Shown: in pieces, positions 8,389 to 36,415 of the stretch
Position numbering within the stretch: the stretch's first letter is position 1
Layout of the letters: each line of letters starts with the position of its first letter
Assembly: GCA_004022145.1 (NCBI GenBank)
Contig: RCNU01000003.1
From: Paecilomyces variotii
Taxonomy: Eukaryota
Strand: one strand, 5' to 3'
DNA: 64,000 nt
Made by a program: the position numbers and the translations under genes
The notes under the pieces: generated by a model
What the model saw: only the letters and a program-made list of their open reading frames with translations
The model's database searches: none
Told to the model about the DNA's origin: nothing

Positions 8389-8825
8389 GGTGACGGTAAT
8401 AGAGTCTTCCTGGTAAAAATCGAAAGACGGATGAAGAGAAGGACGGCAGATGAGCACGCAAGGAAAATTGGAAGCAGAGAAGGACGGGACGAGAAACGGG
8501 GAATTCGATGAATCGAGCGAAAAGGCAGTTTTTCAAGTCGCGCACTTTCGTTGTGGCGGGGTCTCAGGGCGCTAACACAATTTGGTGCCTTAGCGTTAGG
8601 CGTCTTATGTAAGCATCTCGACCGCCGCCGATTAACTAGACGTGCGGAGCTAGCAGGACAGGACAGCGAACAAGCTCCAGTTCGACTCTCACCAGCTCTC
8701 TGTTCTCTTCCATCTGCCGTTCCTGGAGACTGGTGGAGGCGAATTGGCCCGGATAGCTGTCTCATATTCATGCTTCCGGTTGCGCATCACGGTGCCTGGG
8801 CGGCTGACCGTGCTATCTGCTGAGG

Positions 8826-12046: not shown

Positions 12047-13388
12047 ATGGTCGGTCGGTCGTTGTTCGCGCCTCAAGCCCTGCGCTCCAGACGGTTCTTC
12101 TCGACCACGCGCGCCGTCAATGCGGACTTTACTCATGCGGTACGTCTGGCAATTCTCCCCGTTTGTTGGGCATTGTGTGAATTATAGCTAATAGCGCACT
12201 TCAGGTCATTGGAGCTGGAGTAGTAGGCCTTGCGGTTGCTCGGCAATTGGCCTCGAGAGATGGCACGTCAACGATACTGTTAGAACGGCATGGAGCTGTG
12301 GGGATGGAGACAAGTAGTCGGAATTCAGAAGTATGTCCCTTCGCCAATTCCTGTGTGTGTGTGTGTGCTTGCAGCTAACATCACGGCGTGCATTGTAGGT
12401 CATCCATGCTGGTATATACTACCCCGCAGATTCCCTGAAAACGAAGCTCTGCATCAAGGGTAGAGAGATGTTATACGACCTATGCGAGAAGCGGGATATT
12501 CCCCATCGCAACACGAAGAAATGGATCGTTGCCCAAAATGAAGACGAATGGAAATCCTGTCTCAGAGTCCACGAACATGCGCAATCGATAGGTGTACCGA
12601 CACGACTGGTCAGTCAAGAGGAGGCGAAGCAGAGAGAGCCAGAAGTCAGAGCGCAAGCGGGCATCGTGGAGAGTTTGACTACAGGAATTGTGGACAGTCA
12701 TTCGTTAATGACATGCTTACAAGGTGACTATGAGAATCAGGGGGGAGATGTCGCCCTCCAAACGGCCGTGACTAGGATCGAGCCCTTGAATTCCGGCAAA
12801 GATGGATATCGGATATGGGCACGATCTGAAGACGGGTCTGAGGATTCGATCACAGCAGAAACTCTCATAAATAGCGCAGGAAATGGGGCTTGCTATATCA
12901 ACAACTTAGTTCTCCCCGAGGAACGACACCGCACGCCGTATTTCGCGAAGGGGACGTATTTCTCTTACTCGGCATCTTCCCCCAGAACTTCGACGTTGAT
13001 CTACCCGGCCCCGATGCCAGGACATGGTGGGCTGGGTACACATCTCACTTTGGATCTGACCGGACGCATACGATTTGGACCTGATGTTGAATGGATCAGC
13101 GACCCTAATGATCTAAAACCGAGTGCTGCCAGGCTTCAGGAGGCACTACCTCAAATCAAGGCGTATTTGCCCAACGTCAACCCAGAGGCAATCGATCTGG
13201 ATTACTGCGGCATCAGACCGAAATTGAACCCGGGTGGTGGAAACACCGCTGGGAAGGGCTTTCAGGACTTCATCATTCAAAAGGAAGAGGGGTTCCCCGG
13301 TTTTATCAACTTATTAGGCATTGAGAGCCCTGGATTGACGAGTGCCCTAGCTATCGGAAAGATGGTCGAGGGTCTTCTGTATAAGTGA
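12047..13388 (+). CDS. Mitochondrial L-2-hydroxyglutarate dehydrogenase (L2HGDH/LhgO family FAD oxidoreductase)
   Basis: Arg-rich presequence; [12 protein letters not shown] Rossmann motif; '[17 protein letters not shown]'; '[10 protein letters not shown]'; 'FGPDVEW'; 'GIESPGLTS'. Confidence 0.88.
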
Positions 13389-13642: not shown

Positions 13643-15472
13643 TTACGCAACAACGCCGTTCTGCTTTAGCGTCTGGATCTTGTCTTTATTCAATCCCAGA
13701 CCTTCCAACACCTCGTCAGTATGCTCACCTAGAAGAGGTGGTGGTGTCCGAATACTCGGGTCTGCATTTGAATATTTGACTGGTGTGTTGATCACCTTGA
13801 TAGGACCGCAGACTGGATGGTCGATTTCCTTGACCATACCGCGAGCCTTGGCTGTAGATATATCTATATTAGCAATTTTTTTCCATGACATATAGGATTG
13901 AACCGGTGGGATGCATCAACTTACTATGTTCGTGATTGAACGTGCCCATAACGTCGTTAACAGCAGCATAGGGCATTCCCGAGCCTTCGAAAATATCCAG
14001 CCATTCCTGAGTAGTCTTTTTCGTGGTCTCAGCCTCGATGAGACCTTCAAGCTCTTTTCGGTTTTTCACACGGTCATTGTTGGTGTTGTATTTAGGGTCC
14101 GTCTTCCATTCTGGTTTTCCTAGTTTGTCGGCCAAGATCCGGAAGAGTTTGTCGTTGGCACCGCCGATGAAGATGTCTCCGTCGGCAGTTTTGAAGCCTT
14201 GATAAGGGACCACAGAGGCTGGAAAACTCGTCAGCTATTCTGTTTTGACAAATGCCGTGGTTAGAAAGAGACTCTCTACTTACGGTGTGCTGTCCCCCAT
14301 CGTCCAGAGTCCTTCTTGCCACTGATGAGCACTGAGCTGCCCATATTAGCCAACGTAGCCGTCTGGCAGTCGCTCAGGCATACGTCAAGATGCTGACCCT
14401 CCCCAGTGTGCACTCTATGCAGCAGCGCCGCCATGATTGAGTTGCACGCATAGAGTCCCGTCGTCAGATCTGTCACTGCCACTCCCACCTTCACGGGCGG
14501 ACCATCCCGTTGTCCTGTCAAGTGCATCAAACCGAACTCCGCTTCGACCATGACATCAAACCCTGGCCGATTGCTGTAGGGCCCGGTCTGACCGTATCCC
14601 GTGATACTGGCATAGATCAATTTGGGGTTGATCTTCCGAATCGTCTCGTAATCCATGTTGTATTTCGCGAGGGAATTGGGCAGGTAGTTCTCGACAAGCA
14701 CGTCGCAGGTCTTTGCCAGTTCATGAAGGATTTCGACGCCCTCGGGATGGGCGAAGGAAAGTCCTAGGGACTTTTTATTTCGGTTCACCTGGGAGAAGCC
14801 AATTAGTTCCCATGTATATTGTTGGATCCAGGACGAAAAGAGGTTTGGCTTACAGAGAGATAATATGCACTCTCTCCGGGACCTTCCCTTCCATCCAGAT
14901 ATGCAGCAAATGGGGGTCCCCATGCTCTTGTATCGTCTCCTCGTATGGGATGCTCGATTTTAATAATCTCGGCCCTTTATCAAATCACGAACACAAGTCA
15001 GCAAAGTCCACAGAATCCATCGCGACAGAGAATAAACATCAATACACAAAGCCCCACGCCACTGCAGAAGAAGAACAATTCGTACAGAACGTATCGACAT
15101 CAGGGATTCATGGACATCCATACCCCAGATCACCTAGTATTTGTGTACAATATGGCTGCGGGAATCGATGAACCTCAAGTTAGCTTCAGAGCTCACGATT
15201 TACTCGCCCGCATTTTCTCCGCATTCGCGAACAACGGAGATAAAAGCGAATTTCTAATGAAGTATTTTTGGAAGGACTCCTCATACCCCAGCTAGAACTC
15301 TGCTCATGTCCAAAACCCGAATTCCCGCCAGCGGTAACCTCTTATTCGTCGTCGTCGTAGCATGTTGACCTGTTGCTGTTGTCGCGAGTCCTCGATTCGA
15401 GCTCCAACGTGCGGAGATGTAGGCGGATCTTCTGCCGACAACCGACAGTGACCGCAGAGGGTGAGAGTACAT
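13643..15472 (-). CDS. Family III (CaiB/BaiF) CoA-transferase, SUGCT-like, with a mitochondrial-like presequence
   Basis: '[27 protein letters not shown]', '[10 protein letters not shown]', 'VNRNKKS', 'DVLVENYLP', '[13 protein letters not shown]', 'PPLLGEHT'. Confidence 0.9.
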
Positions 15473-16013
15473 CTTGGAATGGGTGTAGGAATTGAGGTCG
15501 GTCCAGGAAATAATTCCTCTCCAATCAATTCATAAGTGCTCTTCTTATAACTTGGTTAAAGAGGAACGAATGAATCCGTCTTGTCAATAATCAAAAAGTT
15601 CAAAGTGTATGTTTTTTGACTCTCTCCGCGCAGGCCCTTGCTAGGAGAGCTGGAGGCCCCACGGCCGATGAAGAAGAGCTCGGCGGGTCTCAATACTTAG
15701 GAGTCTCGAAGACCCCACATGAGACACGAGGCTGAATTCAGGTGGACGAAGGATGGAGAGTGAATATTCTATCATCAACGGTGGGAATAATGTATAATGC
15801 AATTTATGATAATATGCTGCAGAGTTGTTGTATTACTTGATGGATTAAGATGAACTAGGGATAAGACTGGCAGCTTATGTTGGGAACCTGATTTAACTCC
15901 GTTATTGGGCGTACAATAGCTACTTGACGTATTTAGCTATCTACCTTAACATGCATAATTCCTCTTGTATCCGGACTCTAACCCAAATTGCAAAATGTAA
16001 GCTCGTACGGTCT

Positions 16014-18143
<2,130 letters not shown>

Positions 18144-18719
18144 GGTTTATAGGAATTGAGATCAAGGATTTGAGATTATACAACGACGATTGTTTGAGAG
18201 CTGACAACTTTCACAGCAGAAGACTCGAAAGCCTTCTATGGCTACTATATATGTATATATATATATATATATGTCTGCATAATGATCTTCAAGCATAAAT
18301 ATAATTGACCGCGGCGTATATAATTGATCGGTATATCCCCGGATGATCCTCAGAAGCGGGGAGAAACCCGGGGTCGATTGCTTTTCTCATACAATGTGTG
18401 TTTCAGTGTTCTCATGTGCCTAGACTAGACACATCATTGTAACTATCAGTGTATGTTCATAGTAATACATGTATCTATGTGTTGCATAACTAGCAAGCGA
18501 TCATCCACTAGTATCCTTTACCGATGAGTGGGGTCGGAAGGCGGTCGCCTGTGGGGTGCGGAGCAGCAGCGGATAAGCACATTTCCCCCTCGATGATCCC
18601 TAGCCGATTCTCCTTCAGCTCCACGAGCTCACTTGGACTTCTTCTTTTCTTTCTCTTCCTTCTTTCCTTCTCATGTGCACCAATTCCTCCAGGACAGTCA
18701 ACAGGTTGCGGTGCTCAGT
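18144..18719. promoter_or_regulatory. Bidirectional promoter of the VAO-like and CoA-transferase genes
   Basis: Head-to-head ATGs at 18143 (-) and 18720 (+); (AT)n tract at ~18247-18272; several G(C/T)GG(G/A)G sites; direct repeat ATAATTGA(C/T)CG at 18301 and 18320. Confidence 0.6.
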
Positions 18720-20525
18720 ATGAAGGCGAAGGTCAGTCCGCTGTTCAGCCCCATATGGCGGCGGAACTTCTCCGCATCCTCCGCCCAGAGGGCGATCGAC
18801 AAGGTCGTTCCCTCCGCCGCGGAGGCTGTTAAGGACGTGAAGGGAGACTCTACGCTTCTCGTGGGAGGATTTGGTTTCTCCGGTGTTCCCAACACGCTCA
18901 TCAATGCCCTGCGGGACAGGCCCGAATTGAAGGGCTTCACCGTTGTCTCCAACAATGCTGGCATGCCAGGAGTCGGCCTGGGTGAGCAACTTCTGGAGCG
19001 AACGTGAATCTAGAGGATATACACGGCTGACAGCAAGAAATGTAGGCCAACTCCTTGAATCCGGTCAGATTAGCAAGATGATCGCTTCCTTCATTGGCGA
19101 AAACAAGGTCTTCGAGAAGATGTACCTCACCGGAGATCTGTCTCTGGAGCTCACTCCTCAAGGCTCAATTGCAGAGAAGTGCGCTGCTGGTGCTGCTGGT
19201 GTCCCCGCTTTCTATACCCCTGCTGCTTATGGAACTATCGGTAGGATCCAATGGCAAACCCAGTTATTTCTTACAATCAGGCTGACCGTCGAAAGTGCAA
19301 ACTGGTGAACTCCCTGTCCGCTACAACAAAGACGGAACTGTCGCAGAAAAGTCGAAACCCAAGGAAACCCGTGAATTCAATGGCAAGCAATACGTTCTGG
19401 AAGAGGCTATCTTCGGTGACTACGCTCTGGTCAAGGTCCACAAGGCAGACAAGCTTGGTAACTGCCAGTTCCGCAAGGCCATGAACAACTTCAACGAGGC
19501 TATGGGAAAGAACGCCAAGGTTACTCTCGTCGAGGCCGATCAGATCGTCGAGGTTGGCGAGATCGCTCCCGAGGACATTCATCTGCAGGGTATCTACGTC
19601 GACAAGGTCATCCAGAGCACCGAGCCCAAGAAGATCGAGAAGTACACCTACGCCAAGGACCCGAACGAGTTGCTGAAGGCCGGTAAGTCACTTCCGCGCA
19701 CCTGTCTTTATCCCTTGACTGACGTGTCTTCGTGTATCAGGCAGCGGAGATGCCACTGCTCGCCGTGAGCGTATCGTCCGTCGTGCCGCTAAGGAGTTCA
19801 AGGACGGCATGTACGTGAACTTGGGTATTGGAATTCCTCTTATCGCCCCCTCTTTCCTGCCCGAGGGTGTGGAAGTCGTCTTGCAATCTGAAAACGGTAT
19901 CCTTGGACTTGGTGGTTACCCCAAGCCCGGCGAGGAGGACCCTGACCTCATCAACCCGGGTAAGGAAACCGTTGTTCTGGGCCGTGGCGCTTCTCTGTTC
20001 GGATCGCACGAGAGTTTCGGTATGATTCGCGCTGGTAAGATCGATCTCACCATGCTGGGTGCGCTGCAGGTCAGCCAGTACGGAGGTAAGTCTTTCACCC
20101 GCTTCTCGGCCAACTTTTACCCATGACTAACGATTATTAGATCTTGCCAACTTCATGCTTCCCGGTAAAGTCAAGGGTATTGGTGGTGCTATGGACCTGG
20201 TTGCGAACCCTGAGAAGACCAAGGTCGTCGTCACCATGGTATGTACCTATCTACACAAACACACCCCCTTCTTGAACAAAAGTCTAACAACCAGCAGGAG
20301 CACGTTGATAAGAAGGGCAACCCCAAGATCCTTTCTGAGTGCACCTTCCCCCTGACCGGTCCCCGCTGTGTCTGGAAGATCATCACCGATCTCGCCGTCT
20401 TTGATGTCAGCCCCACCGAGGGTCTGACCTTGAGGGAGTTTGCTGAAGGTGTTAGCGTTGACGAGATCAAGGCTAAGACGGCCGCTCCCTTCAAGGTTGC
20501 AGATGATCTGAAGCCAATGCTTTAA
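18720..20525 (+). CDS. Succinyl-CoA:3-oxoacid CoA-transferase (SCOT / 3-oxoadipate CoA-transferase type, fused A+B domains), mitochondrial-like presequence
   Basis: '[12 protein letters not shown]', 'VSNNAG', '[11 protein letters not shown]', 'YVNLGIGIP', catalytic 'LQSENG', '[21 protein letters not shown]', 'CTFPLTG'. Confidence 0.93.
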
Positions 20526-21101
20526 GTTAATCTGCATGATATTATATATGTACGTTTCATCCGTCATGGTGTCGGATATGTCAACTGGATATGATATTTA
20601 GCCATGTATAGAATGATTACAAAATCGAAATTTTCTTTCAAATAATAGCCCAGTCTGAAAATGCCTTGTCTTGTCGACCACGTAGAAGACAATAACAAGC
20701 ATAAACCGAGTAACTATACGCTGAGACAGTTAGCGGGGCCGTGCACAGTCCCGAGGTCCCGATCTTGGATGAACAAGTTAGGCATAGCTTGGGATAAGCG
20801 CTCACCTCGTTTTAGCGTCGCGCGACGCGACAATGCTTCCTAATAGTCTTTGCATCATATACAAAGGGGATATGGGTTATTTGACCCTTACGAAGGGTTA
20901 AGTGACCTGGGTACTCGCTGCTGCTAGACGGGGGGCTGGCGTTGGCGCTTATGTTGTTCATGACTTTTCCCCGTTCAGTTAACTACACCACTCGCCAAGG
21001 TAACCGTGATCTTACACTTCTGAATTTCCATTTTCTTTCGGGATATGGGGTTCCTTTCAAAGGGTTTATTCATTCGAGTATGCAACTTCAATGTGAGAAA
21101 T

Positions 21102-22839
21102 ATGAGTTCGTGGTGCAGCAATCGGGACCTATTTGAGTACACCTCAGGGCGGTTCTTGTGAGTCGTATTTAACACGCTCCCATTGCCTTTAATGACTCTG
21201 CTGATATTTGTCTGGTTTATAGATTTAACGAGGAGCTTCGTCTCACCGAACGTCGCGTGCAATTTGATGTCGATGCTCTCGCAACAGCCATATGCCGTGC
21301 CGTCAGCCGACCTGTGTCTGACCTTGCTTCAATCGTGAAGCTCGCAGAAGGAGGCTTCAACCGTGTCCTTCAGGCCACATTCAATGACGACTATGCAGTA
21401 CTTGCCAGACTTCCTTACCACACAACGGTTCCGAAATATCGTGCGGTTTCTAGCGAAGCAGCTACACTTGATTTACTGCGCTCGTGTGGCGTTCCGGTCC
21501 CTAAAGTCCTTGGATACTCCCCAGACCATACGAACCCCGTCGGTACTGAATACCTTCTTTTGGAGAAACTTGATGGCACGCCCTTGAGTGATCAGTGGTT
21601 CACCATGAATAACAAGACCCGAGTCAAAATAATGAGGCAAATCGTTGACGTGGAGAAACAATTCATGAGCATCTTGCTGCCAGCGAGCGGGAGTTTGTAC
21701 TATCGCAGAGACCTTGGAGAGTCGGAATTCGCTATTGCATTGTCTGAACAATCTGCATCTGATCAGATCGTTGTCGGTCCGACTGCACAGTTTGAATGGT
21801 GGTACCGGGAACGAGCATTATTAGACGTTGACCGTGGTCCATGTACTTCCTTCCGCCCTTTATATGCTGACGACATTTATTGATGAAAGGACCAGGGAAG
21901 ACATTTCTGGGATGCTTCGAAGCTCCCGCAAAACGCGAGATAGGATTTTGTAAACGGTTCGGCAAATCTCGCCTTCACGTTGAACGGTATCTGCGCGAGT
22001 TGCACCAGTTCAAAGAGATGTCACCAACTGTTCACATCCAGTTACTCTCTGATTACTTGAAATTAGCGCCCTCTTTGGAGATCTCGTCAAGCCATCGCTT
22101 TTCTCGACCAGTCCTTCGCCATCCAGATTTTTCGCCGAATAATATATTGGTAAATTCTTCTAGTGACATAGTGGGAATCATTGACTGGCAGCATGCCGTG
22201 GCTTTACCACTCTGCTTGTGTGCCGGCATTCCAGATCATTTTCAAAATTGGGGCGATCTATTGTCAGAAACACTGGCAAAGCCAGAAGTCAAATTACCAC
22301 AAAACTTTCATAACCTAAGTCAAAATGAACAAGAGGCGGTGCAAGAGACCATGCGAAGGCGCCTTGTCCATTTCTACTACGCTGCATTGACCATGACGCA
22401 GATACCAGATCACTTTGACGCTATAAGGAACGAAAACGCGATGCTTCGAGCCAAGCTTTTCAACCGCGCTGGGGCACCCTGGGAAGGGGACTCATTGTCT
22501 CTCAAGTATGCAATGATCCAGGTGTATCAAAACTGGCCGATGTATCTTGACAATGCGGCGCCCGCAGAATCAATTGACTGTCCAGTGGAGTATTCTGAAG
22601 AAGAGATACAACAATGCATAAATGAACATAGCCAGGAGCAGGAGAAGCTGCAAGAACTGATCGAGATGAGGAGCCACATAGGTATAGATGCTCTCGGCTG
22701 GGTCCCTGATGATGAGCAACTGGAAAAGTCGAGAGCTGTCGCTCAAGCAATCAAAGCGGGATTGTTGGAGCACTCTGATACTGAAACTGAGCGGGTGGCC
22801 TTGCAAACCCATTTTCCTTTCGACGACCATGTCGCGTAG
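21102..22839 (+). CDS. Aminoglycoside-phosphotransferase/choline-kinase-like protein (fungal APH/Aim9-like family)
   Basis: Spliced N-terminus 'LFEYTSGRFLFNEELRL'; 'KLAEGGFNRV', 'SEAATL', 'PVPKVL', 'HPDFSPNNILV', 'IIDWQ'; start codon uncertain. Confidence 0.8.
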
Positions 22840-23388
22840 TAGTGCATCATAAAAGGGACATCGCTCCGAAAGGATTCGACTCTATAGCTCTCATGAGATC
22901 AGCTTCGGTGTATTGTGGTACTACGCTTGCAGTAAACCGTAGACAGTATGTATGCATGACCAACTCCACAATTCTCCTTAGTATTCTCTCACATAATACG
23001 TACTGTGCGTTGTTGGCAAAATTTGGAGTAATAATCATGATTGTTTATAGTTAGTTGTAATCTTGGCTGAGAGCTTGGAGAACGTGGGGCTGTCAACGCT
23101 TACGCCCCACGGGCAGTGACCGCCAGTAGTAGAGGAGCTTAGTGGGCGGCTAAGTAGATACCCCGTATTGAAGAGTCCGGACTGCAGTACCTAAATTAAC
23201 CAACTCCGTAATGTATGTACTACTATGTAGTTGCAGGAGCTGCGGAGTTCACTTAGTAAAGATTCACTGGTTTATTTTACCTTCTTTCTTGAACGCCAAT
23301 TTCGATCATCACGACGGGTAATTTCTCGTTTCCACCATTTTGAGATTTGGAGTCTCTCTTGTATAGATTGCAGAACACCACCGCAGGG

Positions 23389-24834
23389 ATGATCGGCAAA
23401 GCAGCGAGGGAGGTCCTCAAAAAATCACCACAGGACATTGTCGTCTTGTCCTCGGTGCGGAGTCCGATTGCCAGGGCCTTTAAGGGCGGGTTTAAAGATT
23501 CATGGCCGGAGGAGATCTTGATTCCGGTATGATTAAGTATCTCCGTCTTCTTCGAGGTTATCTTTATGACAAAAAAAAAAAAAAAGAAAAGAAGCGTTTT
23601 CTAACATGCGAAAAATCACAACAAAATAGGTCATGCAAGCCGCCGTAAAGAAAGCCAACATCGAACCAGGCCAGGTCAACGATGCGATGATTGGAAATGT
23701 CCTCTCTGAGCTGGGATTCGCCAAAACGGGACGAATGGCATTGAATGCGGCTGGTTTCCCTAACTCGACGACATTTCACACTGTGAATAGACAATGCTCG
23801 AGTAGTTTGCAGGCCATCACGCATGTTTCGCACTCTATCATGGTCGGTCAGCTCGATGTCGGGTTGGCGGGTGGTGTTGAGAGCATGACGCGCAACTACG
23901 CCTCGCGCGGTATTCCCGTTGATGTGTCTCCGACGCTGAAGGAGTCGCCGGTTAAGGATGCGCGGGATTGTATTTTGCCTATGTTGAAGACGTCGGAGAA
24001 TGTTGCTCAGCGGTATGGGATTGGACGTAGGGAGCAGGATGAGTTTGCCGCCGAGAGTCAGCGTCGGGCTAGCGAGGCGCAGAAGAGTGGGCGGTTTGAA
24101 GATGAGATTGTCCCGATCACGGCGCGGTGGATTAACGAGGAGACCAAGGAGGAGACTACGAAGTTGGTGACTTTGGACGAAGGTATTCGACACGGTGTGA
24201 CGGTTGAGAAACTGGAGAAGTTGAAGCCGGTGTTGGAGGGAGGAGCCAGCACGGCCGGGAACTCGTGAGTAGCTGGCATTGCGCTGATGCGGAATTCTAT
24301 TCTGTGTCCTTGAGATCTCTAACGTGCAGTAGGTCTCAAATTTCTGACGGTGCCTCTACTACGATCCTTGCGCGCCGTGCCTGGGCTGATGCCCATGGGT
24401 TGAAGCCGATCGGACGTTTCGTGGGCACGCAAGTCGCTGGTGTCGCTCCGGACGAGATGGGCATTGGACCTGTACCGGCAATCCTCAATCTCTACAAATA
24501 CTGCGGCGTTGAGCAGAAGGACATTGATATCTTCGAGCTGAACGAGGCCTTTGCTAGCCAGACTATCTACTGTATCCGCGAGCTTGGACTGGACCCTGCC
24601 AAGGTCAACCCCAACGGCGGTGCCATTGCTCTGGGCCATCCTGTCGGCGCGACTGGAGGCCGACAGACTGCTACTCTGCTTGCTGAGCTCCAGAAGCAGG
24701 ACAAAGAGCTCGGAATCGTCAGCATGTGTGCTAGGTGAGTTGAACTTGTAATTGGTTTGGTCGTGAGCAGCTACTAACACGCGCTGCAACACAGCACTGG
24801 TATGGGTGTGGCGTCTCTCTTCATCAGGGAGTAG
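23389..24834 (+). CDS. 3-ketoacyl-CoA thiolase (possibly 3-oxoadipyl-CoA thiolase)
   Basis: Catalytic '[11 protein letters not shown]', 'GGVESMT', 'STAGNSSQISDGA', 'ELNEAFA', '[18 protein letters not shown]', 'SMCASTGMG'; ends SLFIRE*. Confidence 0.93.
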
Positions 24835-25400
24835 GCATAGCCACCTAGCTATCCACTTGGTCTCCGCTCGCACAGATGCGTTGTTGGTTCCATGATTCCA
24901 TCTTTCTCACCGCGAGATCGTTGCGGGACTCGATAACAGAATCGATGGTGAGGCTCGGGGAGGAGCTTGGCGGATGGAGAACACAAGAAAAGGCCCCACG
25001 AAATAGCGCGACGAAGTTATGCGGGGAAGCTTGGGTAACTTGGATACTGTCAGTAATTAATTATTTAATATTGACTTAGACTACTACTTATGTAACTTAC
25101 AGACAACGCAGAAATGTGAGAGCTGAAAGCCCCACACTAAGTTTAGAATTGAGCTGTCGACGATGTGGTGCAGAGCAAAAGGTCCATGTGCGTTGTAATA
25201 ATACTACATCTGGTCAATTATTGTAGATGTGCTTTTCCTTCCAATCAAAGAGCTATTGGTTCAGATCGTCGCGCGTCAAGTGCTGCTATAGAGACATCCC
25301 TGATCACGCGTTGGAGACGCTCGCTCGCTAGGTCCTGCCAGCGCAACGACAGCAACCAACGACCCAGCTGTGTGAGATACATTTTCGAGAATTGATCAAC

Positions 25401-26917
25401 ATGTCACTCTTTGCGCAATTGCTGCGACACTCACAACGGGTCTCTGCTGTTCCTCGAATTCGCATTGCCAGCCAGAGAAGACTCATGGGTTCAGTCAGTG
25501 CTATCGACTCGGGCATCTTCCGGACGCTGTTCGGCACGGAGGAGATCCGGAAGGTATGATGGAGATTCTTGATGATTTCTTTCTTTCGTTTCTACGTTCA
25601 TGCAATGCTGATGAGATATACTTCTTCAAGGTGTTCGATGACAAGGCCTACATCCAACGCTGTGTCGATGCGGAAGCAGCACTGGCACGAGCGCAATCGC
25701 GGTGCAATGTGATCCCTCCGGAGGTCGGTGACATGGTGACTTCCAAGGTGGCCCAGTCAGAGCTGGATCTCGAGCGACTACGACACGAGACGGAAATCGT
25801 GGGTTATCCCATCCTGCCTCTCGTCCGACAGCTGTCGGCCATCTGCGGCGAGGAAGCGGGCAAGTATGTGCACTGGGGCGCGACAACGCAGGATATCATG
25901 GACCTTGCCAGCGTCCTACAGATGAAGCAAGGCCTGGCCATTGTGGAGCGCTTGCTAAAGGACGTGATAAAGACCTTGCGAGATCTCTCGGAGAGGTACA
26001 AGGACACGCCAATGGCGGGAAGAACCCATCTGCAGCATGCGCTGCCTGTTACTTTTGGTTACAAGTGCGCCGTTTGGCTGTCTGGTTTCCAGAGACATCT
26101 GGAACGGTTGGAACAGCTCAAGAGCCGTACGCTGCTTGTCCAATTTGGCGGTGCAGCTGGTACCCTGGCGTCGCTGGGAAATGGCGATGACGGTCTCAGG
26201 GTGCGGAGAGCGTTGGCTGAAGAATTGGGCCTGGCGGACCCTTCCATTACCTGGCACGTTGCGCGCGACGGTGTTGCGGAGATCGTCAACTTCCTGGCCC
26301 TGATGGGAGGTTCGATGGGTAAGCTGGCGCTTGATATCATCGTCATGTCCTCCAACGAGCTCGGCGAAGTGTCGGAGCCGTTCGTCCCTCACCGCGGTGC
26401 ATCTTCGACGATGCCGCAGAAGCGGAATCCTATCTCCAGCGAAGTCATCCTGGCAGCCTCCAAGATTCTGCGCTCTAATGCTGGGCTAGTCCTTGATGGC
26501 ATGGTAGCTGACTTTGAGCGTGCCTCGGGGCCCTGGCATCTCGAGTGGGTGGCGGTGCCGGAGAGCTTTGTGATCGCGGTCGGTGCCCTTTTCCAGACAC
26601 ACTTTGCGTTGTCCGGTCTGTCTGTGCACAGCAAGCAGATGCTTGACAACCTGCACTCCACCAAGGGCCTGATCGTGGCAGAGGCCGTCATGATGGGCAT
26701 GGCCCCGTATGTGGGTCGCCAAAACGCTCACGACATTGTCTATGCAGCGTGCAAGGAGAGCATCGAGAAAAACCTAACGCTTCTCGAGTGCCTGCTCTCC
26801 AAGGAAGAAGTCACGTCGAAGATGGAGGAAGAGCGTCTGCGCGCGCTCTGTGACCCTGTCAACTACCTGGGAGCATCACAGCAGATGGTCGACGATGTTC
26901 TCGCGGTGAAGTACTGA
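25401..26917 (+). CDS. PcaB (3-carboxy-cis,cis-muconate cycloisomerase)-like class II fumarase/aspartase-superfamily lyase
   Basis: Exon 1 MSLFAQLLRH...MGSVSAIDSGIFRTLFGTEEIRK; intron 25554-25630; 'HWGATTQDIMD', 'GRTHLQHA', 'QFGGAAGTLASLG', signature 'GASSTMPQKRNPISSE', 'ERASGPWHLEW', 'DPVNYLG'. Confidence 0.85.
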
Positions 26918-28034
26918 GAATTGTAGATACCTGAGCGATTTAGTATTGCATTTATGGGATAGCATAAAGATTGAGTTTTGTCTATATCTACCATCTACAT
27001 GATTTTGCTCAATTTCCCAGAATTATTTTATCTACCTAGGTAGTTAGTTACATTCTGGTCGATTACTTAATCTTAGTTGTCCCAATTGTTAATTATCACC
27101 ACGTGAAAGGCTTTCAGAGAGCCTCATCTATAGCTCGAATTACCCCGCAAAGTTCGGTTCGTTCAGCACCAACAACATATCATTGATATCTAGGTAACCA
27201 GTAACTGGAACTGTGACTGGCAGTGGAGCACGGCCGTTCCATCAACTACCTACCTTTAACCCAAACCATCATCGACCTGCAATACTGAACGGCATCCATG
27301 GATTCTGTCAAGGGACCACTTCGCCATGACATCAGTGGGGTCAAGAGAAGTGAGACAATCTGGCCTGATTTCCAACGCAGATCCAGAGACTGTGGCAGAT
27401 AACGTCTACAGCGTTGGTAGTCTCACGTTGGAGACGATGGAGCCGTCTTCTCCCACCGTATCGAAGGAGGTCTTCGATTAACGCAGATCCTGTCTATGTA
27501 CGCAAGTCCGGCATGAACCACTCTCCTAGCTGGCTTCTGCCTGCGTAACTAATCAAGTGGGTGATGCAGTACATCGCTTGGATGGCTTTACATGGTGATA
27601 TCGCCCCTCCGGTACGGGCCAAAAGATCAAATACTTATTGTACGCCTAGGCGATCATGCATCTTGCTCAATTACAAAACCCTCAAATGGCGACTTGACCC
27701 CATCTACACGCTTTTCCTCCACTTGTTACTAACTCATGGATATGTCTTTGTGCTTCATCCACCATCGTTCTCCACATGCCAGCCCCGCAAGATACTCGGA
27801 GCTGAAATGTCGCCGCGGGTGCGAGAGTGGGCCGATATAGTTCTCTAGAGAGTCTTTGCGCTCAAAAGACTCATGTAATAATAATTATTGAACGGACTTG
27901 AAAGATCGGAACGAGGACCAAACTTTTCGACTGTCTTAGCCTTTCTGCCTTTGAGTTGTCAGGACGGACAAATATCTCCTTGTTTAATATACTTTGCTCT
28001 ATTTTGTATTATTCTACTGCATCCAACAACAAAC

Positions 28035-29941
28035 ATGCCAGCACCCCCGATCAAAGAGAGGAAGCCCGTGACGGACCTCCAGAAGGTGTTTCACTATACA
28101 GATACTCAGCGCCGCAAGCCGACGCGTGAAGAAGATCCGTATGAGTACCAGGCCGGTTGGGGGAACCGTTTCCAGTCTGAAGTTATCCCGGGTACGCTCC
28201 CTGCTGGCCAGAACAACCCGCAGGAAGCTCGATTCGGCCTGTACACGGAGGGTATCACATATTCGGCCTTTGCGGCTCCTCGCCATGCCAACTTTAGTAC
28301 CTATCTCTACCGTGCTAGAGTTGCTGCTGCTCACCGTATGTTGTGTACAATGTCTACCTGTCTATGAAGATGGTTCTGGCTGATCATGATTCCTATCAGA
28401 TGGCTACAAAGCAAACATTGAAACAAAATCGCATATCGAGAACTGTCTACTCACGCTGAACCCGAAAGTTGAGACACTTGCTGAGCAGGCTGAATGGCTG
28501 CCATTCCCGCTTCCCAAGGAGGATGAGAAGATCGACTTCGTTGACGGGTTGCACACCCTGGGTGGGAGTGGCGACCCAAACTTGCGCGAAGGGATTGCGT
28601 TGTATGTGTTCATGATCAACGCGGATATGGACCATCGGGCATTCTGCAACACGGACGGTGACTTCCTGATTGTTGCGCAGCTGGGCAACCTGGACATCCA
28701 GACGGAGTTGGGTAAGCTCTTCCTGCAACCCGGCGAGATCTGTGTGATCCCGCGTGGAATCCGCTTTGCTATCCGACGTGCCCCTGGCCATAATGTTGCT
28801 CGTGGCTATATCACGGAGATCTGGGGCTCCATCTGGGAGCTCCCTGACCTGGGTCCGCTGGGTGGTCACGGGTTGGCTAATCCACGAGACTTCCTGTATC
28901 CTGTTGCTTATATCGATGACGAACTACACGAGGACTGGAGTATCGTCAACAAGGCGAATGGAAAATATAATGCCATTCAACAGGATCATAGTCCGTTTGA
29001 TGTTGTGGCGTGGCATGGTAACGCCGTTCCGTACAAGGTGCGTCCATTCCCTTCTTTTCATCATTTCCATCAACGAGTTACAAAACTAATTGTACTGTAG
29101 TACGACCTCACCAAATTCGCCTCTCAAAATGCCACATCGATCGATCACACCGATCCATCCGTGAACTGCGTCCTGACAGCCAAGTCGCGAGACCCTAATA
29201 CTCCTCTGGCCGACTTCCTCTGGTTCGGACCGCGATGGGACGTGGCATCCAACACGTTCCGTCTGCCATACTTCCACAGGAACTCCGCCACGGAATTCCT
29301 GGCCTCGCTGTACGGTAACGGATTGGGTCGATCAGATGAGTTCCTCCCCGGCGGTGGCAGCGTGGAGATCAGCCACACGCCGCATGGCAACTTTAGCGAA
29401 GATTATGTGTGGGAGATGCGCGTGCAGGAGAATGAGCCGCGGAAGATTTTGGAGAGTGAGTATTATCCCGTCGTCCGGTTTCTAAGCCAGACGAATGTCC
29501 TATATCTGGAGAATGGGAGAGACTAAACGCATGTACAGACCAAATGACAATCATGGTCGAAAGTAGCCGCACGTTCCTGTTCACGGAATACGCGCGCTCG
29601 ATCTGCGGCACGTTCAAGAATCAGGGCACCGACCCGAAGGTGTGGGATGTTCTCCCGGTGAGTCTTTTTAACTCTCCCTCAGAGCATATACCAGGGAATG
29701 AAAATAAGTTCTAACGGCTTGCTTTCAGGACAAATTCTCATCGTATCCGAACATCAAGGAGATCCTGGCGCAAGTTAAGGCCGACAAGGCGGCACAGCGA
29801 GCGCGGCTGGACACTTACTATGATGATGAGCGGCTGGCGCAGGTCGCGGCGCAGGGACATGTCAAGAGCAAAGAGATTGATGGCAGCGCGGTGGCCAATG
29901 GTAGGAATGGCACCAATGGACATGCTGTGGCTGCTGTATAA
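28035..29941 (+). CDS. Homogentisate 1,2-dioxygenase-like cupin dioxygenase (divergent HmgA paralogue), multi-exon
   Basis: 'YQAGWGNRFQSEVIPGTLPAGQNNPQ', 'GLYTEGITYSAFAAPR', 'PGEICVIPRGIRF', 'LPDLGPLGGHGLANPRDF', 'SPFDVVAWHGN', 'IDHTDPS', 'FRLPYFHRNSATEF', 'HTPHG'. Confidence 0.88.
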
Positions 29942-31233
29942 TCTGGATTATTAGGCATAATTTATTTGATCATATTTCATTTCATTGTCTCTGTATCCGG
30001 TTTCCCGTCACGGTAGGTAGCTAGGTACCTAGGTAGTTATGTATCTATGAACCACGCGAGTAGATTAATTACCTAGTAGTAGCAACATAAGGAAAGAAAC
30101 GAACGCACGTGGAACAGATTTATTATTTCTTTAAGTCTTGTCATACCAAACTCCTGTCCCCACCTGATTCAGAATCTATAAGATCGGCCTTCTTATGCCT
30201 ATTCTGAAACCCATCTATCTCACCGACAAGACTTCGGCCCACGCAGGCGATACGAACTACCGTGGCCGAAACGATGGTGGTACGAGAGATACGAGAAGAA
30301 TATTCCACCTGCCCAATCACAAATCATAGAAACGGGTCTTGGTCAGCGAGACTCGTCACGGACTTGTCACAAGATCCACCGTTGGACCGAACACCGTTCG
30401 TTGAGTTCAACGTTGTAACTCGGGAGTCCAACGGAGTCGGTCCAGCAGGGATGGAAAGGTCTTGCTGGCTACCGTTGCTATCATGAGTAATTAATTATTC
30501 CTCATTGACTGACTGACAGATTGACTCGCTCGATGTGTGTGAGTCTGTGAGATGCGAACGCCACAAATGCCGGAGAGGCGAGAAGAAAAAAAAGCCACCA
30601 TGCGCTCGAGCGGCTGCGCAGATTGGTGATCATTGGCCGTGATTCGATTTCCCCGTGGGGTAAATATTAACTAGCAGACGAGCGACTCTACGCTAGAGTA
30701 CCAATACAGGAATTCAGGCTTCCTGCTAACGAGTTAATTTAGTTGCTTTAACTAGCAATGGGTTGGTGAACTTCCTCACTGACGACCCCACCTCAACAGG
30801 TCGGCTACAAGGCTCGGCTTAACCCCCCGGGCTGCTTTAGCCGTCAGAATCCAGATGCATTGGCGATGATCGTCCGCTGTGCTGGAACAAGACTGAGACT
30901 GCTGGGACGATCTCCCCGGTAAGCCCGGATACAAAACAGTTTAGGGCGGGCGCACTTTGCTGGCCGGGCTGGGCGCGACTGACGGCCTTTTTCTCGTGTA
31001 GTCGGGGACGATTTACGCCCATTACGCCCATTACGGTCACCAGGACACGAAGAAAGCCAAGCTGAAGCTTTTCTCTGGCCCCCCAAGGACGGAAGACGTC
31101 TCTTTCCCCTCTCCGAACTTTGCTTTCCCCTCCTTCTCCAATGCCCTCCGCCTAAGTGTATAGCGGGTAGTTGGACGATGCTCCTGGCCCGGTCCCTTTG
31201 CTGCCCTTTCCTCGCATCATCGCGAGAGTCGTC

Positions 31234-34190
31234 ATGGTCTTGAGAAAGTGTACCATCTGCGATCGCCGGTTCAATAAGACAGAGCATTTCAAGCGTCATG
31301 AGCGTTCACGTATGTGGTTTGGTTGCTTGATACATGTTTCTCCGCATTGCGGATCGCTGACAGGTGTATATACAGACACCAAAGAACGACCGTATGAGTG
31401 CAATGTATGTCACAAACGATTCTCCAGAAGGTAAGTCCGCAGGACTAGTTCCCCACGTGCAAAATTGATCTTATCAAATTTTCCGTCTGCGATGTAATAA
31501 TAATATGTGCTGATCGCGTTCTACAGTGACGTTCTGAGCCGGCATGCCAAAGGCCATATAGCGCAGGCTGCAACAGCCACTGCCAACGGGGCAATGAACG
31601 GGAAACCGTCCGGGACCGAATCCATCCCCGATCAAAGGCCCTCGGCCGTCAATATCACCCCGTCGACGGCTAATCCAAATGATGAGACGCCGCGTCTGCT
31701 GCCGGGCCTGCCACCGGAGACGCAACGCCTCCCTAATCTTCCCCCGACTCCGCGGGATGTGCCAATATCTGCCAATGGGATGCAATCGACGTCGTTGGAC
31801 TTCCTGGCTGACATCTCAGCCCATCATGCCCGTACGGAGTCGGATATCAATCCCATGATGATCGATGAGCAGCAGCCGTATTTCGGGTGGAATGAGGTGA
31901 CGCCGCTCAATCCACCGGAACATGCTTCGCAGCGTGGAGTTGCATTCGATGCTATGCACAACGACATACTCCAGTTTTGGCTGGAACCCAGGGGAGACAG
32001 TGTTTCTCGTCAGGGTTCTCTTGATTTGATGAGAGATACCAACTTCGGGTTGGTTGGGGAAAACCTGGCACTCTCCCCGGAAAGACATCACCGGCACTCG
32101 ATAGACACGACTAAATCTGGTGACAATATCCCAAATGAGCGGTTCGCCAAAGTCGAACGCTGCTGGCTGGCTCCTTCTAATACCGTGGGTCGGTTAATGA
32201 ACACGTTATGGCGCGATATGGCGCATAGTGATCTGGACAATCTCTTTTCTGTCCACAACTTCCAGCCCTTGGGGCATTATTCGGACGGTCCACAGGGGTC
32301 AAGACACGGCCTAGATGAGGAGTGTCGGATGCAGCTGCAGGCGGTTTTTGGCATGGCGCCGTCAACACTCTCGCATATTAACTCCCCGGGAAACGAAGCT
32401 TTATCTCCAGCAGCGTCAGCTTCCGGTGGCTCTGCGCCTACGTTCCCACCAGCGGAGATCCTGGACATGGCATTGGACCTGTATTTCCGCCATTTTCACA
32501 GGCTGGTTCCATTCGTCCATCTACCGACATTCTCCGCAAAGAAGGCACGATTGCCTCTATTGTTTGTGATGTGTCTTATCGGAATGATTATCTTGGGAAC
32601 AAAGGGGACAACAAGCTTTGTGGCAAGGTCCTTTCCGGTAAGTGCTTATCTCGTAATAGCATCAGTCGAGTCGCAACTAACGGGAAGCAGGTGGTCTTCG
32701 AAAAGGTCAGTGCTGAACTAGCCAAATGCTCTCTGGGCAACGGCAAGCCAGCAGGGATCATGACAACGTTTGCGACGGCCTTTCTGTTCCTTAATCTAGC
32801 AGCGATGACAGGGGTGCGTTATTGCGAATCTCAATGGCCTAGTAGCGATGCTGACTGAGTCCAGGAGAAAGAACACTTGGAGCAATGCCAGATGCTTTAC
32901 GTGAACCTTATGGCGGTATGTGATGGTCTTTCCCCCCCTAGCTGTGATAACTGTGCTCATACTTCATAGGTCGCTCAAAGACACGGTCTGTTTACAGCCA
33001 ACGAAGGCCAGATACTCGACATGGCCCTGTTTGAAGCGGTGCCTGATCTTGACATGCGATGGAAGGCGTGGAGCCGGGTGGAGTCTGCTAAACGGTTCGT
33101 TCCAAGTTCCTACCTTAATGTATAAACTATAAACTAATGCCGGGACAGGTTGATCATAGGTCTACTGCTTATTGACTCCTGGTACTCATCCTTCCTGTCA
33201 ACCAGCCCTATTGTGGCGCCAGACTCGGTCCAGATCATATTACCCTGCAATGAGACGCTTTTCAGGGCAGGCTCGTCAATCCGGTGGATGCAGCTGATTC
33301 GTGGTGGGAAGCGCATTTTAATGCCCACTGTGACCTCACCGTCTGAAAACACGAGTCTTCCGGTATTAGATGCTCCAGTGGACGATTTCTGTATGCAGGG
33401 GATACTGGCGATGCTGCAGCTGCGGTTGTCAGAAGCGTATCATCGACTGCTGTCTAACCGCGCGAGCTATCCCTTTGCCCCATGTCATACGTATGCTATG
33501 GATGGTCGTGCGAGATGTTTACCCTCACTGCAGGTCGAAGTCGTTAAAAACTACGAAGAGATCCTCGAGAGGCTGAATCCCAACTCCATCATCATGTGGC
33601 ACTATATGTGCATGATGCTCTGTGCTGACATGCAGATATTCGATCTCGCAGCTGGACGTGCCGGGCCTTTGCCTGCACGCAAAGCACTGGACGATATTGC
33701 AGCTTGGTCTCAGACCACAGCAGCCAGAAGAGCCTGTCTACATGCGGCACAGATCTTCAAGTTCATGACCAACCGCAAAGCGTCGGACGATACTATGTTC
33801 CACTCGGTATTTGCGCTCTTCTCCGCTGCACTCGTCCTGGGCCTCTACACCTTCATGGTGCCCCATTCAGCGGAGACGCAGGTTGGCGCCACATCAGTTG
33901 AATTGCTGGAAGATATCGACTGGCGGCAAATTGGTGCTGAGGGTTTTACCAGCTTCATGGAACCACAGGGGAGCCAGCCATACGGTACAGCTGACAGTGA
34001 AGCCACGAATTTCATCCGCAACGGTGGCACGATATATATTCGTGGAGTCCCACATCAGGGAGGCTACCAGTCTGCGCGGCGCATCCTGCTCGACTATGCG
34101 GGACTTCTCAAAGACACTGGGAAGTGGAGCGTGCGGAAATTCTCCTACGTGCTGCACATTATGAGTGATGTGTTGATGGAGGTCGAGTAG
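31234..34190 (+). CDS. Two-finger C2H2 transcription factor with a fungal-specific TF domain
   Basis: Spliced fingers CTICDRRFNKTEHFKRHERSH-TKERPYE-CNVCHKRFSRSDVLSRHAKGH; 'LYFRHFHRLVPFVHLPTF'; 'WKAWSRVESAKR'; 'AARRACLHAAQI'. Confidence 0.9.
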
Positions 34191-34933: not shown

Positions 34934-36415
34934 TCACCACAAAAACTGTCTCTGAAACTTCACAGGTGGCGCCGCGATCCACGAACTCAGCTCCATTGGC
35001 GCTGTCGGAGTCGGCGTCGACGCATATATTGAATCCACTATTTGGGATGGCGTGGTTCCTGTATTTCTGTTTGCAACTTGATACTCTCTTCCATCGGCTG
35101 AAGATGGTACGGTCCCGTTGGCATGCAGATCGTTCTGATCTTCCGCCTGCCGATTCAGATCCTGATACTGTTGTATTATCCCCTTTCTGGGAGTCTCTTC
35201 CGAAGAAGAACAAGAAACCGGACCCCGCATTCCTGGCTCTTGTTCCGATTCTCGTTGAACGACTGAACGACTATCACTCAAACTGGTTCTCTGGCGTTTC
35301 CTCGGGCTCTGCCCCAAAGGAACTGGTGGATCTTCAATCACTGTATCTCCAAAATGTGTTCGGGCTGCTGCACCTCGCGACGAGCTATCATCTATAGATG
35401 ATAAACTCAGGTCTGTATCACGCCGGACAACACTATCGCCAGCACCAGCAGAACTCGAACATAAACCAGAAGACACACCTCCCGTCCAACCCGCATGATG
35501 ATGAAGATGATAACAATCCCTCTCCCACCTCCGAATACTCTCAGTAGAAGATAAAGGGAATCGTTTCCAGTACTCTGCGCCTGTCTTTCTCGTAGTGGAT
35601 GATAATGATAGTGGTGGTATTATCAAATTATTCTTCTGGTTCTGGTCCACGTCCAGATTGGTATTCGATTTCGAGTTCAAGTTTGAGTTTGAGATGATGG
35701 ACGATGTGACTTTTCCTTCTGAAAGAATCTTAGAAAGCTCATCATCTGATACATGACCGAGGAGTCTTAGTAGTAAATGCTCTGTTTCGTGAAGACGGTG
35801 TTCGAGGGTTTCGATGTAGCCTTTTGCGGGGCCGCTGGGGTTTGGATTTTAGTTAGGGATCGGTACGTTCATATTTCTAAAGACAAGTTCGAGATTGGGT
35901 TGGGATTGGCCCTTGTTTTGTTTTTTTCGTGATGTATTCATCCCGATGAGATGACCATATGTATATATATGTGTGTGTGTGTGTATGTGGTCTGAGAATG
36001 TATATCTATAACGTACCGTTTAAGTTGTTCTGGCCAAGCGCAAGGACGGCCGTATTCGAGACATTGTTCGCATCTTGGTCTTTTTGCCATATTGCTTTTC
36101 GTTAGTTGATGTTTTCTTTCTTTTTCGAGGTTGAATCATCAAATAAAATCTTCGGTTTTCACTAAGAGTCAAGGGTTTGCATAGCGTAGGAGGAGGTATA
36201 TTTATCCTCGACTTGGAACAATAGACGGTTTCAATTAACATACCTTTCACCACTACACTGTATGCTATATCAGCCGCCTTTTCCCTTCATGAAAATGAAA
36301 TTACACCATTACAGCGAATTATTTGAGTTCAACTTACCTTTTGCTTCCGCGCTCGACATGGATTACACGCCGTGGTGATGCGAGAGGCTTTTTTCTCGCG
36401 TGATGTGAGGGCCAT
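34934..36415 (-). CDS. Small Zn(II)2Cys6 DNA-binding protein with no visible fungal TF middle domain
   Basis: Spliced zinc cluster ACNPCRARKQK|CSGER|PRCEQCLEYGRPCAWPEQLKR|GPAKGYIETLEHRL, including a 14-nt micro-exon near 36244-36257; continues into the ORF ending FQRQFLW* at 34934. Confidence 0.8.

Follow-up and report, generated by a model that had tools for sequence, protein, structure and literature searches.

A 64 kb window of the genome of Paecilomyces variotii (Eurotiales), meaning here the whole stretch of DNA that was analysed, contains a catabolic gene cluster at positions 13643–34190. Pfam, NCBIfam and PDB sequence searches placed nine genes between two housekeeping blocks, running from an L-2-hydroxyglutarate-dehydrogenase-like gene to a C2H2 transcription factor. 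On the plus strand the cluster encodes a succinyl-CoA:3-oxoacid CoA-transferase (SCOT) of family I with fused A and B parts (18720–20525, 504 aa, 6 exons; Pfam CoA_trans, TIGR02429), a 3-ketoacyl-CoA thiolase paralogue (23389–24834, 404 aa, 4 exons; Thiolase_N), a fumarase/aspartase-superfamily lyase of the CMLE/Tad1/CreD subfamily (25401–26917, 479 aa, with an intron at 25556–25630; Lyase_1 and ADSL_C) and a homogentisate dioxygenase (HGD)-like dioxygenase with a C-terminal extension (28035–29941, 541 aa, 5 exons; HgmA_N). These are followed on the same strand by a transcription factor of 860 aa with two N-terminal C2H2 fingers and a Fungal_trans domain (31234–34190, 7 exons; Pfam and motif reading). 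On the minus strand lie a SUGCT-like type III (CaiB/BaiF) CoA-transferase of approximately 450–460 aa (13643–15472, 6 exons; Pfam CoA_transf_3, 5.8e-57) and a 4-phenol flavoprotein oxidase of the vanillyl-alcohol oxidase (VAO)/eugenol-oxidase type (16014–18143; FAD_binding_4 and FAD-oxidase_C). The genes named by a first-pass annotation, which had proposed an undescribed phenolic-catabolism cluster, were all recovered at their coordinates by these searches. The annotation reported a single CoA-transferase; SCOT is indeed present, but the conserved type III enzyme was not described there and the cluster holds two.

Gene models were built by threading P. variotii proteins onto the window and from spliced contigs of run X1, which comes from the same organism. 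The lyase exon was 100% identical, and the HGD-like and thiolase exons 99% identical, to P. variotii proteins. Spliced X1 contigs confirmed three introns of the type III CoA-transferase, one of the VAO gene, five of SCOT and six of the transcription factor, with the five SCOT introns supported by spliced contigs of run X6 as well, and further X1 contigs covered parts of the lyase and HGD-like genes. The spliced frame of SCOT is free of internal stops and the transcription factor model is likewise open. The cluster is transcribed and spliced in P. variotii. Two food-fermentation metatranscriptome runs, X2 and X3, contained unspliced contigs of 8–13 kb with 95–99% identity to positions 14200–34190; these were rejected as expression evidence because their length and lack of splicing indicate DNA-like carry-over from a related strain.

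The HGD-like dioxygenase shares approximately 50% identity (51–53%) with human and fungal HGDs. All residues of the His-Glu-His iron site (human H335, E341 and H371) are aligned and kept, and the lid tyrosine (human Y350), described as contacting the carboxylate of homogentisate (PMC11634970), is replaced by glycine in the P. variotii enzyme. A motif search of 72 clade matches, 64 of them readable, found the lid tyrosine in none (0/64) and an x-Gly-Leu motif in 62. Among non-clade matches the tyrosine was present in 33 of 42 readable sequences, and 7 of the 42 belonged to a third group, in which the lid is longer and reads ‘YGPE’. This third HGD clade comprises proteins of 486–491 aa with a ‘YGPE..GGRS’ lid; the Aspergillus niger member of the HGD-like clade has 537 aa. 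Against the HmgA equivalog TIGR01015 the P. variotii enzyme scored 452.9 bits, under the cut-off of 510.75, and a canonical fungal control (P0238) scored 547.6. The ‘remodelled HmgA fold’ of the first-pass annotation does not extend to the metal site, which is unchanged; the clear change is the lost lid tyrosine. No FAH, MaiA or HPPD gene was present among the open reading frames (ORFs) of at least 150 aa scanned across the window. The dioxygenase belongs to a distinct HGD-family clade and, judged from these sequence features, most likely has a substrate other than homogentisate. A 2025 survey places the HGD copies of Pezizomycotina in several old clades without assigned function (PMC12420386; see also PMC13094099). 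HGD-family enzymes that cleave acetate-free hydroquinones have been described: MhdA of A. niger cleaves methoxyhydroquinone and adjoins the esterase OmeA and an MFS transporter gene (PMC8336404), and PcMHQD1/2 of Phanerochaete chrysosporium cleave methoxy- and dimethoxy-hydroquinone (PMC11634970). In these methoxyhydroquinone systems ring cleavage yields a maleylacetate derivative, which is then reduced and finally converted to 3-oxoadipate.

To follow the linkage of these genes, 80 metagenome loci were fetched with an alignment of the HGD-like clade and probed with the exons of the window. With clade membership set at 60% identity or above, 57 of the 80 loci were clade-type and 23 carried members of other HGD clades, with 21 and 11 of these, respectively, being long loci of at least 10 kb. 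In the 21 long clade-type loci the transcription factor was found 15 times, SCOT 14, the lyase 13, the thiolase 12, the type III CoA-transferase 8 and VAO 3 times, and SCOT, thiolase and/or lyase were present in 15; the counts are partly non-independent, L114/L115 and L109/L110 each being the same organism sampled twice. The 23 loci of other HGD clades served as an internal control and carried none of the cluster partners (0/23). At least five distinct gene orders occurred among the clade-type loci, so membership of the cluster survives rearrangement.

Named genomes gave the same picture, with orthologue locus tags consecutive or near-consecutive in 12 of them, adjacency here being inferred from the tag numbers. 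HGD and lyase tags are neighbours in P. alfredii (HGD 009267, lyase 009268) and Oculimacula yallundae (5821 and 5822), and in Scytalidium lignicola lyase g8488 and HGD g8489 are consecutive, with thiolase g8483 five tags from the lyase. Lyase and thiolase tags are consecutive in P. argentinense, P. cosmopolitanum, P. tannophilum, A. nanangensis and Cadophora sp. M221, and cluster genes lie 2–8 tags apart in F. nematophilum, S. strictum, A. navahoensis and A. terreus. Wrongly merged public gene models provided further evidence of adjacency. In the Lipomycetes yeast Limtongia smithiae, a single merged model of 1479 aa is collinear (tblastn) with the thiolase (65–79% identity), lyase (71%) and HGD-like gene (66–78%) of the window. 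Didymosphaeria variabile has the HGD-like protein merged with the type III CoA-transferase, thiolase–lyase mergers occur in Thermoascus, two Coleophoma species and Hymenoscyphus, and in Verticillium the thiolase is merged with a Fungal_trans protein. Tag adjacency, merged models, metagenome co-occurrence and the empty other-clade control together show that the grouping exceeds chance and is a real cluster kept across distant fungi. The first-pass observation is confirmed, and the locus is an anciently conserved ascomycete catabolic cluster.

The edges of the cluster were fixed by an inversion. Relative to the flank formed by the L-2-hydroxyglutarate-dehydrogenase-like gene and Vps52, the entire block runs in the opposite direction in L114, such that in L114/L115 these two genes lie at the transcription factor end, whereas in P. 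variotii they lie at the CoA-transferase end. The inversion marks the dehydrogenase-like gene as the flank of an invertible block, and the boundaries match those drawn by the first-pass annotation between housekeeping blocks. In the window this gene, of which the last exon spans 12399–13388 (+), encodes an L-2-hydroxyglutarate dehydrogenase/oxidase-like FAD enzyme (Pfam DAO; NCBIfam L-2-hydroxyglutarate oxidase). It was rejected as a cluster member because it accompanies Vps52 on either side of the cluster, and it probably stands outside. The left flank consists of RabGAP, Yip1, Rrn7, eIF5A and Vps52. On the right, the cluster is followed by an unassigned ORF of 304 aa without a Pfam match (34934–35848, −), an isocitrate/isopropylmalate-dehydrogenase-family gene (37360–38244, +) and a second Fungal_trans transcription factor (39170–41495, +), and then by PABP, HECT, Utp14 and GH81. 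No match to the 304-aa ORF, the dehydrogenase-family gene or the second transcription factor was found in the related loci probed.

Two further genes of the window differ from the conserved core in their distribution. The C-terminal exon of the VAO-type oxidase matches vanillyl-alcohol oxidase in the PDB (3e-76; 1e8f alignment) with equivalents of His422, the site of covalent FAD attachment, and of the phenolate-binding Tyr503 and Arg504 all kept. Its N-terminal exon has its nearest relatives among bacterial enzymes of the eugenol-oxidase type and matches VAO residues 107–249, the printed alignment being to 8s7n. VAO was found only in the window and in L096, L114 and L115, all Eurotiales-like, and is an accessory member confined to such loci; the first-pass annotation had placed side-chain oxidation first, and an obligate first step of this kind is not supported by the distribution of the gene. 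An APH-like phosphotransferase gene (approximately 21173–22839, +; Pfam APH, 2.7e-5) interrupts the cluster, as that annotation had noted. The interruption is particular to this genome, no homologue being found in any of the 80 metagenome loci, and the gene is probably an insertion specific to the P. variotii lineage and not a pathway member. It occupies the gap between SCOT and thiolase where other lineages carry a reductase gene. In an environmental Eurotiales-like contig, L112, a DDE (Tc5/pogo-type) transposase ORF (7521–8465) separates the lyase gene from the HGD-like gene.

The back end of the cluster consists of SCOT, the thiolase and the type III CoA-transferase. In Candida, Osc1 and Oct1 form the back end of the 3-oxoadipate pathway. 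TIGR02429 and CoA_trans matched on one SCOT exon, the fused A+B frame of 504 aa being supported by RNA. The thiolase is of type I and passes TIGR01930 (406 bits, cut-off 240.55) and fails the pcaF model TIGR02430 (283.9 bits, cut-off 597). Its A. nidulans homologue is AN4009, with 70% identity; given that the KctA orthologue in A. nidulans is AN5698 (PMC10406623, Table 3), the thiolase is a dedicated paralogue and not KctA. SCOT and thiolase complete the fungal 3-oxoadipate pathway, and A. niger has three candidates for each, with a role assigned to KstA and KctA alone (PMC10406623). The window resembles the KstA/KctA system in combining a fused SCOT with a 3-ketoacyl-CoA thiolase, probably mitochondrial in both cases, but differs in that its thiolase is the paralogue and that KstA and KctA are not adjacent in A. 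niger.

For the type III CoA-transferase the best NCBIfam match is succinate-glutarate CoA-transferase and the best PDB match is succinate-hydroxymethylglutarate CoA-transferase (7.8e-52, one exon scored). Its best solved relative, mammalian SUGCT (PDB 9br6), shares membership of family III and a presequence-like N-terminus, whereas the enzyme described here is embedded in an aromatic catabolic cluster. In 12 metagenome loci an orthologue adjoins the HGD-like gene. Within their first 35 residues, both the lyase and the type III CoA-transferase have 5–6 Arg and no Asp or Glu; the N-terminus of the type III enzyme is also rich in Ser, and the N-termini of this enzyme and of SCOT appear presequence-like.

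The lyase was ranked highest against PDB entry 3c8t (1.5e-161), followed by Ustilago Tad1 (7.6e-114) and CMLE (2e-99). Entry 3c8t, an uncharacterised protein named ‘fumarate lyase’, comes from a Mesorhizobium-like bacterium and shares approximately 60% identity; identity to Tad1, estimated by eye from the alignment, is approximately 45%. Both PcaB equivalog cut-offs exceed the scores of the full-length lyase (TIGR02426, 341.9 against 355.75; NF006554, 458.4 against 595), and protocatechuate 3,4-dioxygenase and pcaC/pcaD-type genes were not found in the window. The label ‘bacterial-type PcaB’ given by the first-pass annotation was therefore abandoned. Its statement that the locus is neither a canonical protocatechuate nor a canonical homogentisate cluster holds, given the divergent HGD-family dioxygenase, the back end of SCOT and thiolase, and the C2H2 factor. 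Residues S320, S321, R360, W365 and W369 of Ustilago maydis Tad1 (PDB 9h4h) are identical in the lyase and T362 is replaced by Ser, these being positions reported to matter by mutagenesis (PMC11880804). The lyase thus keeps the serines of the SS loop, the catalytic Arg and the two Trp of the Tad1 active site, and it belongs to the same subfamily as Tad1 and bacterial CMLE/PcaB (1q5n, 1re5). However, the catalytic Arg is common to CMLE and CreD, so the residue match does not discriminate Tad1 function. The context also differs from that of Tad1 and PcaB, being an aromatic ring-cleavage cluster and not itaconate biosynthesis or a pca operon, and no PrpF/Adi1-like aconitate isomerase gene is present in the window. 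Fungal orthologues of the lyase are 71–91% identical across classes and carry an Arg/Ser-rich, acid-free N-terminal extension of approximately 25–35 residues (n = 6; approximately 28 aa in P. variotii), a composition that would be consistent with mitochondrial import.

Bacterial relatives of the lyase were examined in 80 loci taken from genome contigs and probed for HGD, thiolase, SCOT and VAO. Relatives with 57–61% identity were accompanied by a divergent GntR/UTRA regulator in 25 of the 80 loci and a downstream SDF symporter for C4-dicarboxylates in 22, after which a class II fumarase follows in 10; a class I fumarase occurs in L032 and a TctC gene of a tricarboxylate transporter in L008. 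In L002 (7075–10661), L006 (7089–12120) and approximately 20 similar loci from Pseudomonas, Bradyrhizobium and Burkholderiales, the GntR/UTRA gene is divergent from the lyase and SDF is present; this group includes relatives of PDB 3c8t and often has class II fumarase next. The transporter and operon neighbours suggest that the lyase subfamily acts on free small di- or tricarboxylates, and the fumarase neighbours hint that the nearest lyase clade may release fumarate. Relatives with 46–49% identity lie near a MaoC hydratase, a type III CoA-transferase and a CitE-like lyase, all three in 8 loci. PrpF was found in 6 of the 80 loci, in five of these together with MaoC, type III CoA-transferase and/or CitE-like genes. 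In the proteobacterial locus L062 (2484–9284), and also in L065, L069, L078 and L080, the MaoC, type III CoA-transferase and CitE-like genes occur with a Tad1-like lyase; PrpF lies within the operon only in L062 and elsewhere in the other four, and SDF is present in L062 and L065. Operons of the L062 type look like a complete route from trans-aconitate through itaconate to pyruvate and acetyl-CoA; if so, Tad1 homologues of bacteria would serve in catabolism.

Other lineages carry additional genes within the cluster. In 12 of the 57 clade-type loci, all non-Eurotiales, SCOT and thiolase are separated by a gene of the iron-dependent alcohol dehydrogenase (Fe-ADH) family. Its protein has as best PDB match an entry named MAR1 (9e-41), with maleylacetate reductases lower in the list, and the clustering of this reductase-like gene supports a maleylacetate-type intermediate. 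A mitochondrial-carrier gene follows the CoA-transferase in 6 loci; no homologue was found in the window. In several Dothideomycete-like loci (L082:2, L086:19830–21576 and L127:15869–16386) a cytochrome P450 gene sits at the cluster edge and could be a hydroxylase making the hydroquinone substrate. The C2H2 factor is presumed to be the cluster regulator.

From gene content, conserved linkage, clade-specific features and spliced transcription, all of them observed, we infer a mechanism in which the cluster, on balance, probably encodes an uncharacterised route for a hydroquinone-type aromatic other than homogentisate. The HGD-like dioxygenase would open the ring of a para-diol to a maleyl-beta-diketo or maleylacetate-type acid, the double bond of which a maleylacetate-reductase-like enzyme would saturate. 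The resulting 3-oxoacid would enter the mitochondria, in some lineages perhaps through the clustered carrier, where SCOT would activate the 3-oxoacid end with succinyl-CoA. The thiolase paralogue would then free acetyl-CoA and leave a substituted C4/C5 dicarboxyl-CoA, and the SUGCT-like CoA-transferase and the Tad1/CMLE-type lyase together may turn this remainder into an acid of the TCA cycle. Fumarate, formed by beta-elimination from a 2-substituted succinate, is the favoured product of this last step, with Tad1-like decarboxylation or cycloisomerisation as alternatives. The set would be controlled by the C2H2 factor. In Eurotiales the set appears to have gained a VAO-type oxidase, an indication that the route is fed there by 4-hydroxybenzylic compounds of guaiacyl or syringyl type.

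A more specific version concerns the substituent. Alkoxy-substituted hydroquinones are suggested as substrates by a variant of the cluster with a CE4-type hydrolase, described below, together with the MhdA–OmeA precedent. In this version the cluster would supply the missing lower part of a route for methoxylated (syringyl-type) hydroquinones or methoxy-maleylacetate. The methoxy group would be kept through cleavage, reduction and thiolysis; methoxysuccinate would then be released from its CoA ester by the SUGCT-like transferase, and the Tad1/CMLE-type lyase, acting as an ether-cleaving O-alkyl-malate lyase, would release methanol from 2-methoxysuccinate to give fumarate. This version is speculative and we regard it as unlikely, although, if true, it would add to the fumarase superfamily a reaction that is new for it and would let fungi mineralise S-lignin units without a demethylase. 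Literature searches on methoxysuccinate metabolism returned nothing relevant.

Several observations weigh against the general hydroquinone scheme. No maleylacetate-reductase gene was found in the window (tblastn, 1e-3), so that in P. variotii such an enzyme is either encoded elsewhere or missing, and the cluster contains no monooxygenase to make a hydroquinone. SCOT may be the general beta-ketoadipate enzyme KstA (NRRL3_01886). The presequences were judged by composition only, and the contigs show transcription and cannot show co-regulation. Six of the 21 long clade-type loci (L088, L108, L121, L124, L148 and L149) pair the HGD-like gene with a CE4/polysaccharide-deacetylase-like (DUF2334) hydrolase and hold no CoA enzymes, with the same transcription factor family present in L088, L121, L124 and L149; the dioxygenase can thus work without CoA enzymes. 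Among the 80 bacterial loci the lyase relatives have no HGD beside them (0/80), a thiolase only in L028, and neither SCOT nor VAO. The 46–49% relatives lie in operons of the itaconate-degradation type, by which the lyase and a CoA-transferase could form an aliphatic-acid module.

The last points lead to a reading in which unrelated modules are kept together, the lyase and SUGCT-like enzyme serving an aliphatic acid of the trans-aconitate or itaconate type, SCOT and thiolase serving ketone bodies or 3-oxoadipate, and the dioxygenase standing separate. The MaoC, type III CoA-transferase, CitE-like and PrpF neighbours of the bacterial lyases favour such a division, as do the Tad1 residues important by mutagenesis, all kept or conservatively replaced, and the six long loci in which the HGD-like gene occurs without the other genes. 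It is nevertheless an improbable explanation for six or seven genes that remain linked through several rearrangements across Pezizomycotina classes, three of which are still linked in a Lipomycetes yeast. Microsynteny in fungi usually decays quickly, so such persistence argues for joint selection, and one transcription factor accompanies all of the genes. In addition, no hydratase or citramalyl-CoA lyase is clustered with them in fungi.

The shared HGD fold raises the question of whether the cluster is the known methoxyhydroquinone (vanillate) pathway, with the HGD-like enzyme as the MhdA orthologue and the vdhA-vhyA-mhdA-omeA set extended by VAO, SCOT and thiolase. MhdA is reported to be 50.8% identical to HmgA (PMC8336404), much as the HGD-like enzyme is to HGDs; VAO makes vanillin from vanillyl alcohol; a route ending in 3-oxoadipate needs SCOT and thiolase; and the pairing of the HGD-like gene with a CE4 hydrolase resembles the dioxygenase–esterase pair mhdA-omeA. 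We consider this identity doubtful. The neighbours described for A. niger mhdA are the esterase and MFS genes and not a lyase or thiolase (PMC8336404), whereas here the partners are the lyase, two CoA-transferases and a thiolase. By its size, MhdA-His (55.5 kDa, approximately 490 aa) fits the third ‘YGPE’ clade better than the HGD-like clade. The methoxyhydroquinone route would moreover leave the lyase and the type III CoA-transferase without a role.

A fumarylacetoacetase-independent route for homogentisate, and hence for tyrosine and phenylalanine, would reduce maleylacetoacetate, activate the product with CoA and split it by thiolysis into acetyl-CoA and succinyl-CoA. HGD, a reductase, SCOT and thiolase suffice for this chemistry, and the dioxygenase retains about half the residues of true HGDs and the intact iron ligands. 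The window also resembles the fungal homogentisate cluster (hmgA, fahA, maiA, hpdA and hmgR; A. nidulans AN1893–AN1899, and Talaromyces marneffei) in having an HGD-fold Fe(II) dioxygenase and a pathway regulator. Here, however, FAH, MaiA and HPPD are missing among the scanned ORFs, the back end is CoA-dependent and not hydrolytic, and the dioxygenase forms a separate clade that has lost the lid tyrosine throughout and scores under the HmgA equivalog cut-off. Neither the lyase nor the type III CoA-transferase would have a function in such a route. In T. marneffei four hmgA paralogues are described as silent on tyrosine and as not compensating for loss of hmgA (PMC4374905). Homogentisate as the substrate is accordingly very unlikely. 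Least probable of all is the route of the first-pass annotation itself, in which VAO oxidises the side chain, a cupin enzyme cleaves the ring, a PcaB-type cycloisomerisation follows, and CoA activation and thiolysis complete the sequence. In its favour, the window encodes each of the five enzyme types, a muconate-like product could chemically be lactonised by the subfamily in the manner of CMLE, and the annotation's view of a genuine catabolic cluster with a CoA/thiolase end stands. Against it, VAO is not in the cluster outside Eurotiales-like loci, the lyase is nearer to Tad1 and 3c8t than to PcaB, a presequence-like N-terminus on the lyase and not on the dioxygenase makes consecutive action in one compartment unlikely, and the scheme lacks the reductase step for which the 12 loci of other lineages carry a candidate gene.

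The hydroquinone-type route proposed here appears not to have been described before. As the first-pass annotation supposed, literature searches found no published description of the cluster or of the A. nidulans (AN4007–AN4012) and A. terreus (ATEG_03799) identifiers, although full cluster catalogues may list it. Searches with NRRL3_01523–NRRL3_01528 returned nothing except for NRRL3_01526, and those with AN4009, AN10495 and AN5698 yielded only known 3-oxoadipate papers. The cluster catalogue of Gluck-Thaler and Slot (bioRxiv 10.1101/184242) or the survey of aromatic clusters by Martins et al. 2019 (Adv Microb Physiol; cited in PMC13094099) may list the locus as an unnamed candidate. PMC13094099 and FAMeDB (PMC12388069) give eight fungal central ring-opening intermediates and contain no such cluster.

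The cluster is a new and widely conserved combination of known enzyme families. It ties one unassigned HGD clade to fixed partners and a regulator across most filamentous ascomycete classes and a basal yeast lineage, and makes a widespread aromatic pathway directly testable. It may also give a first physiological role to a large clade of bacterial and fungal Tad1/CMLE-like lyases, and could matter for the turnover of lignin-derived carbon and for fungi engineered to make or consume hydroquinone-type chemicals.

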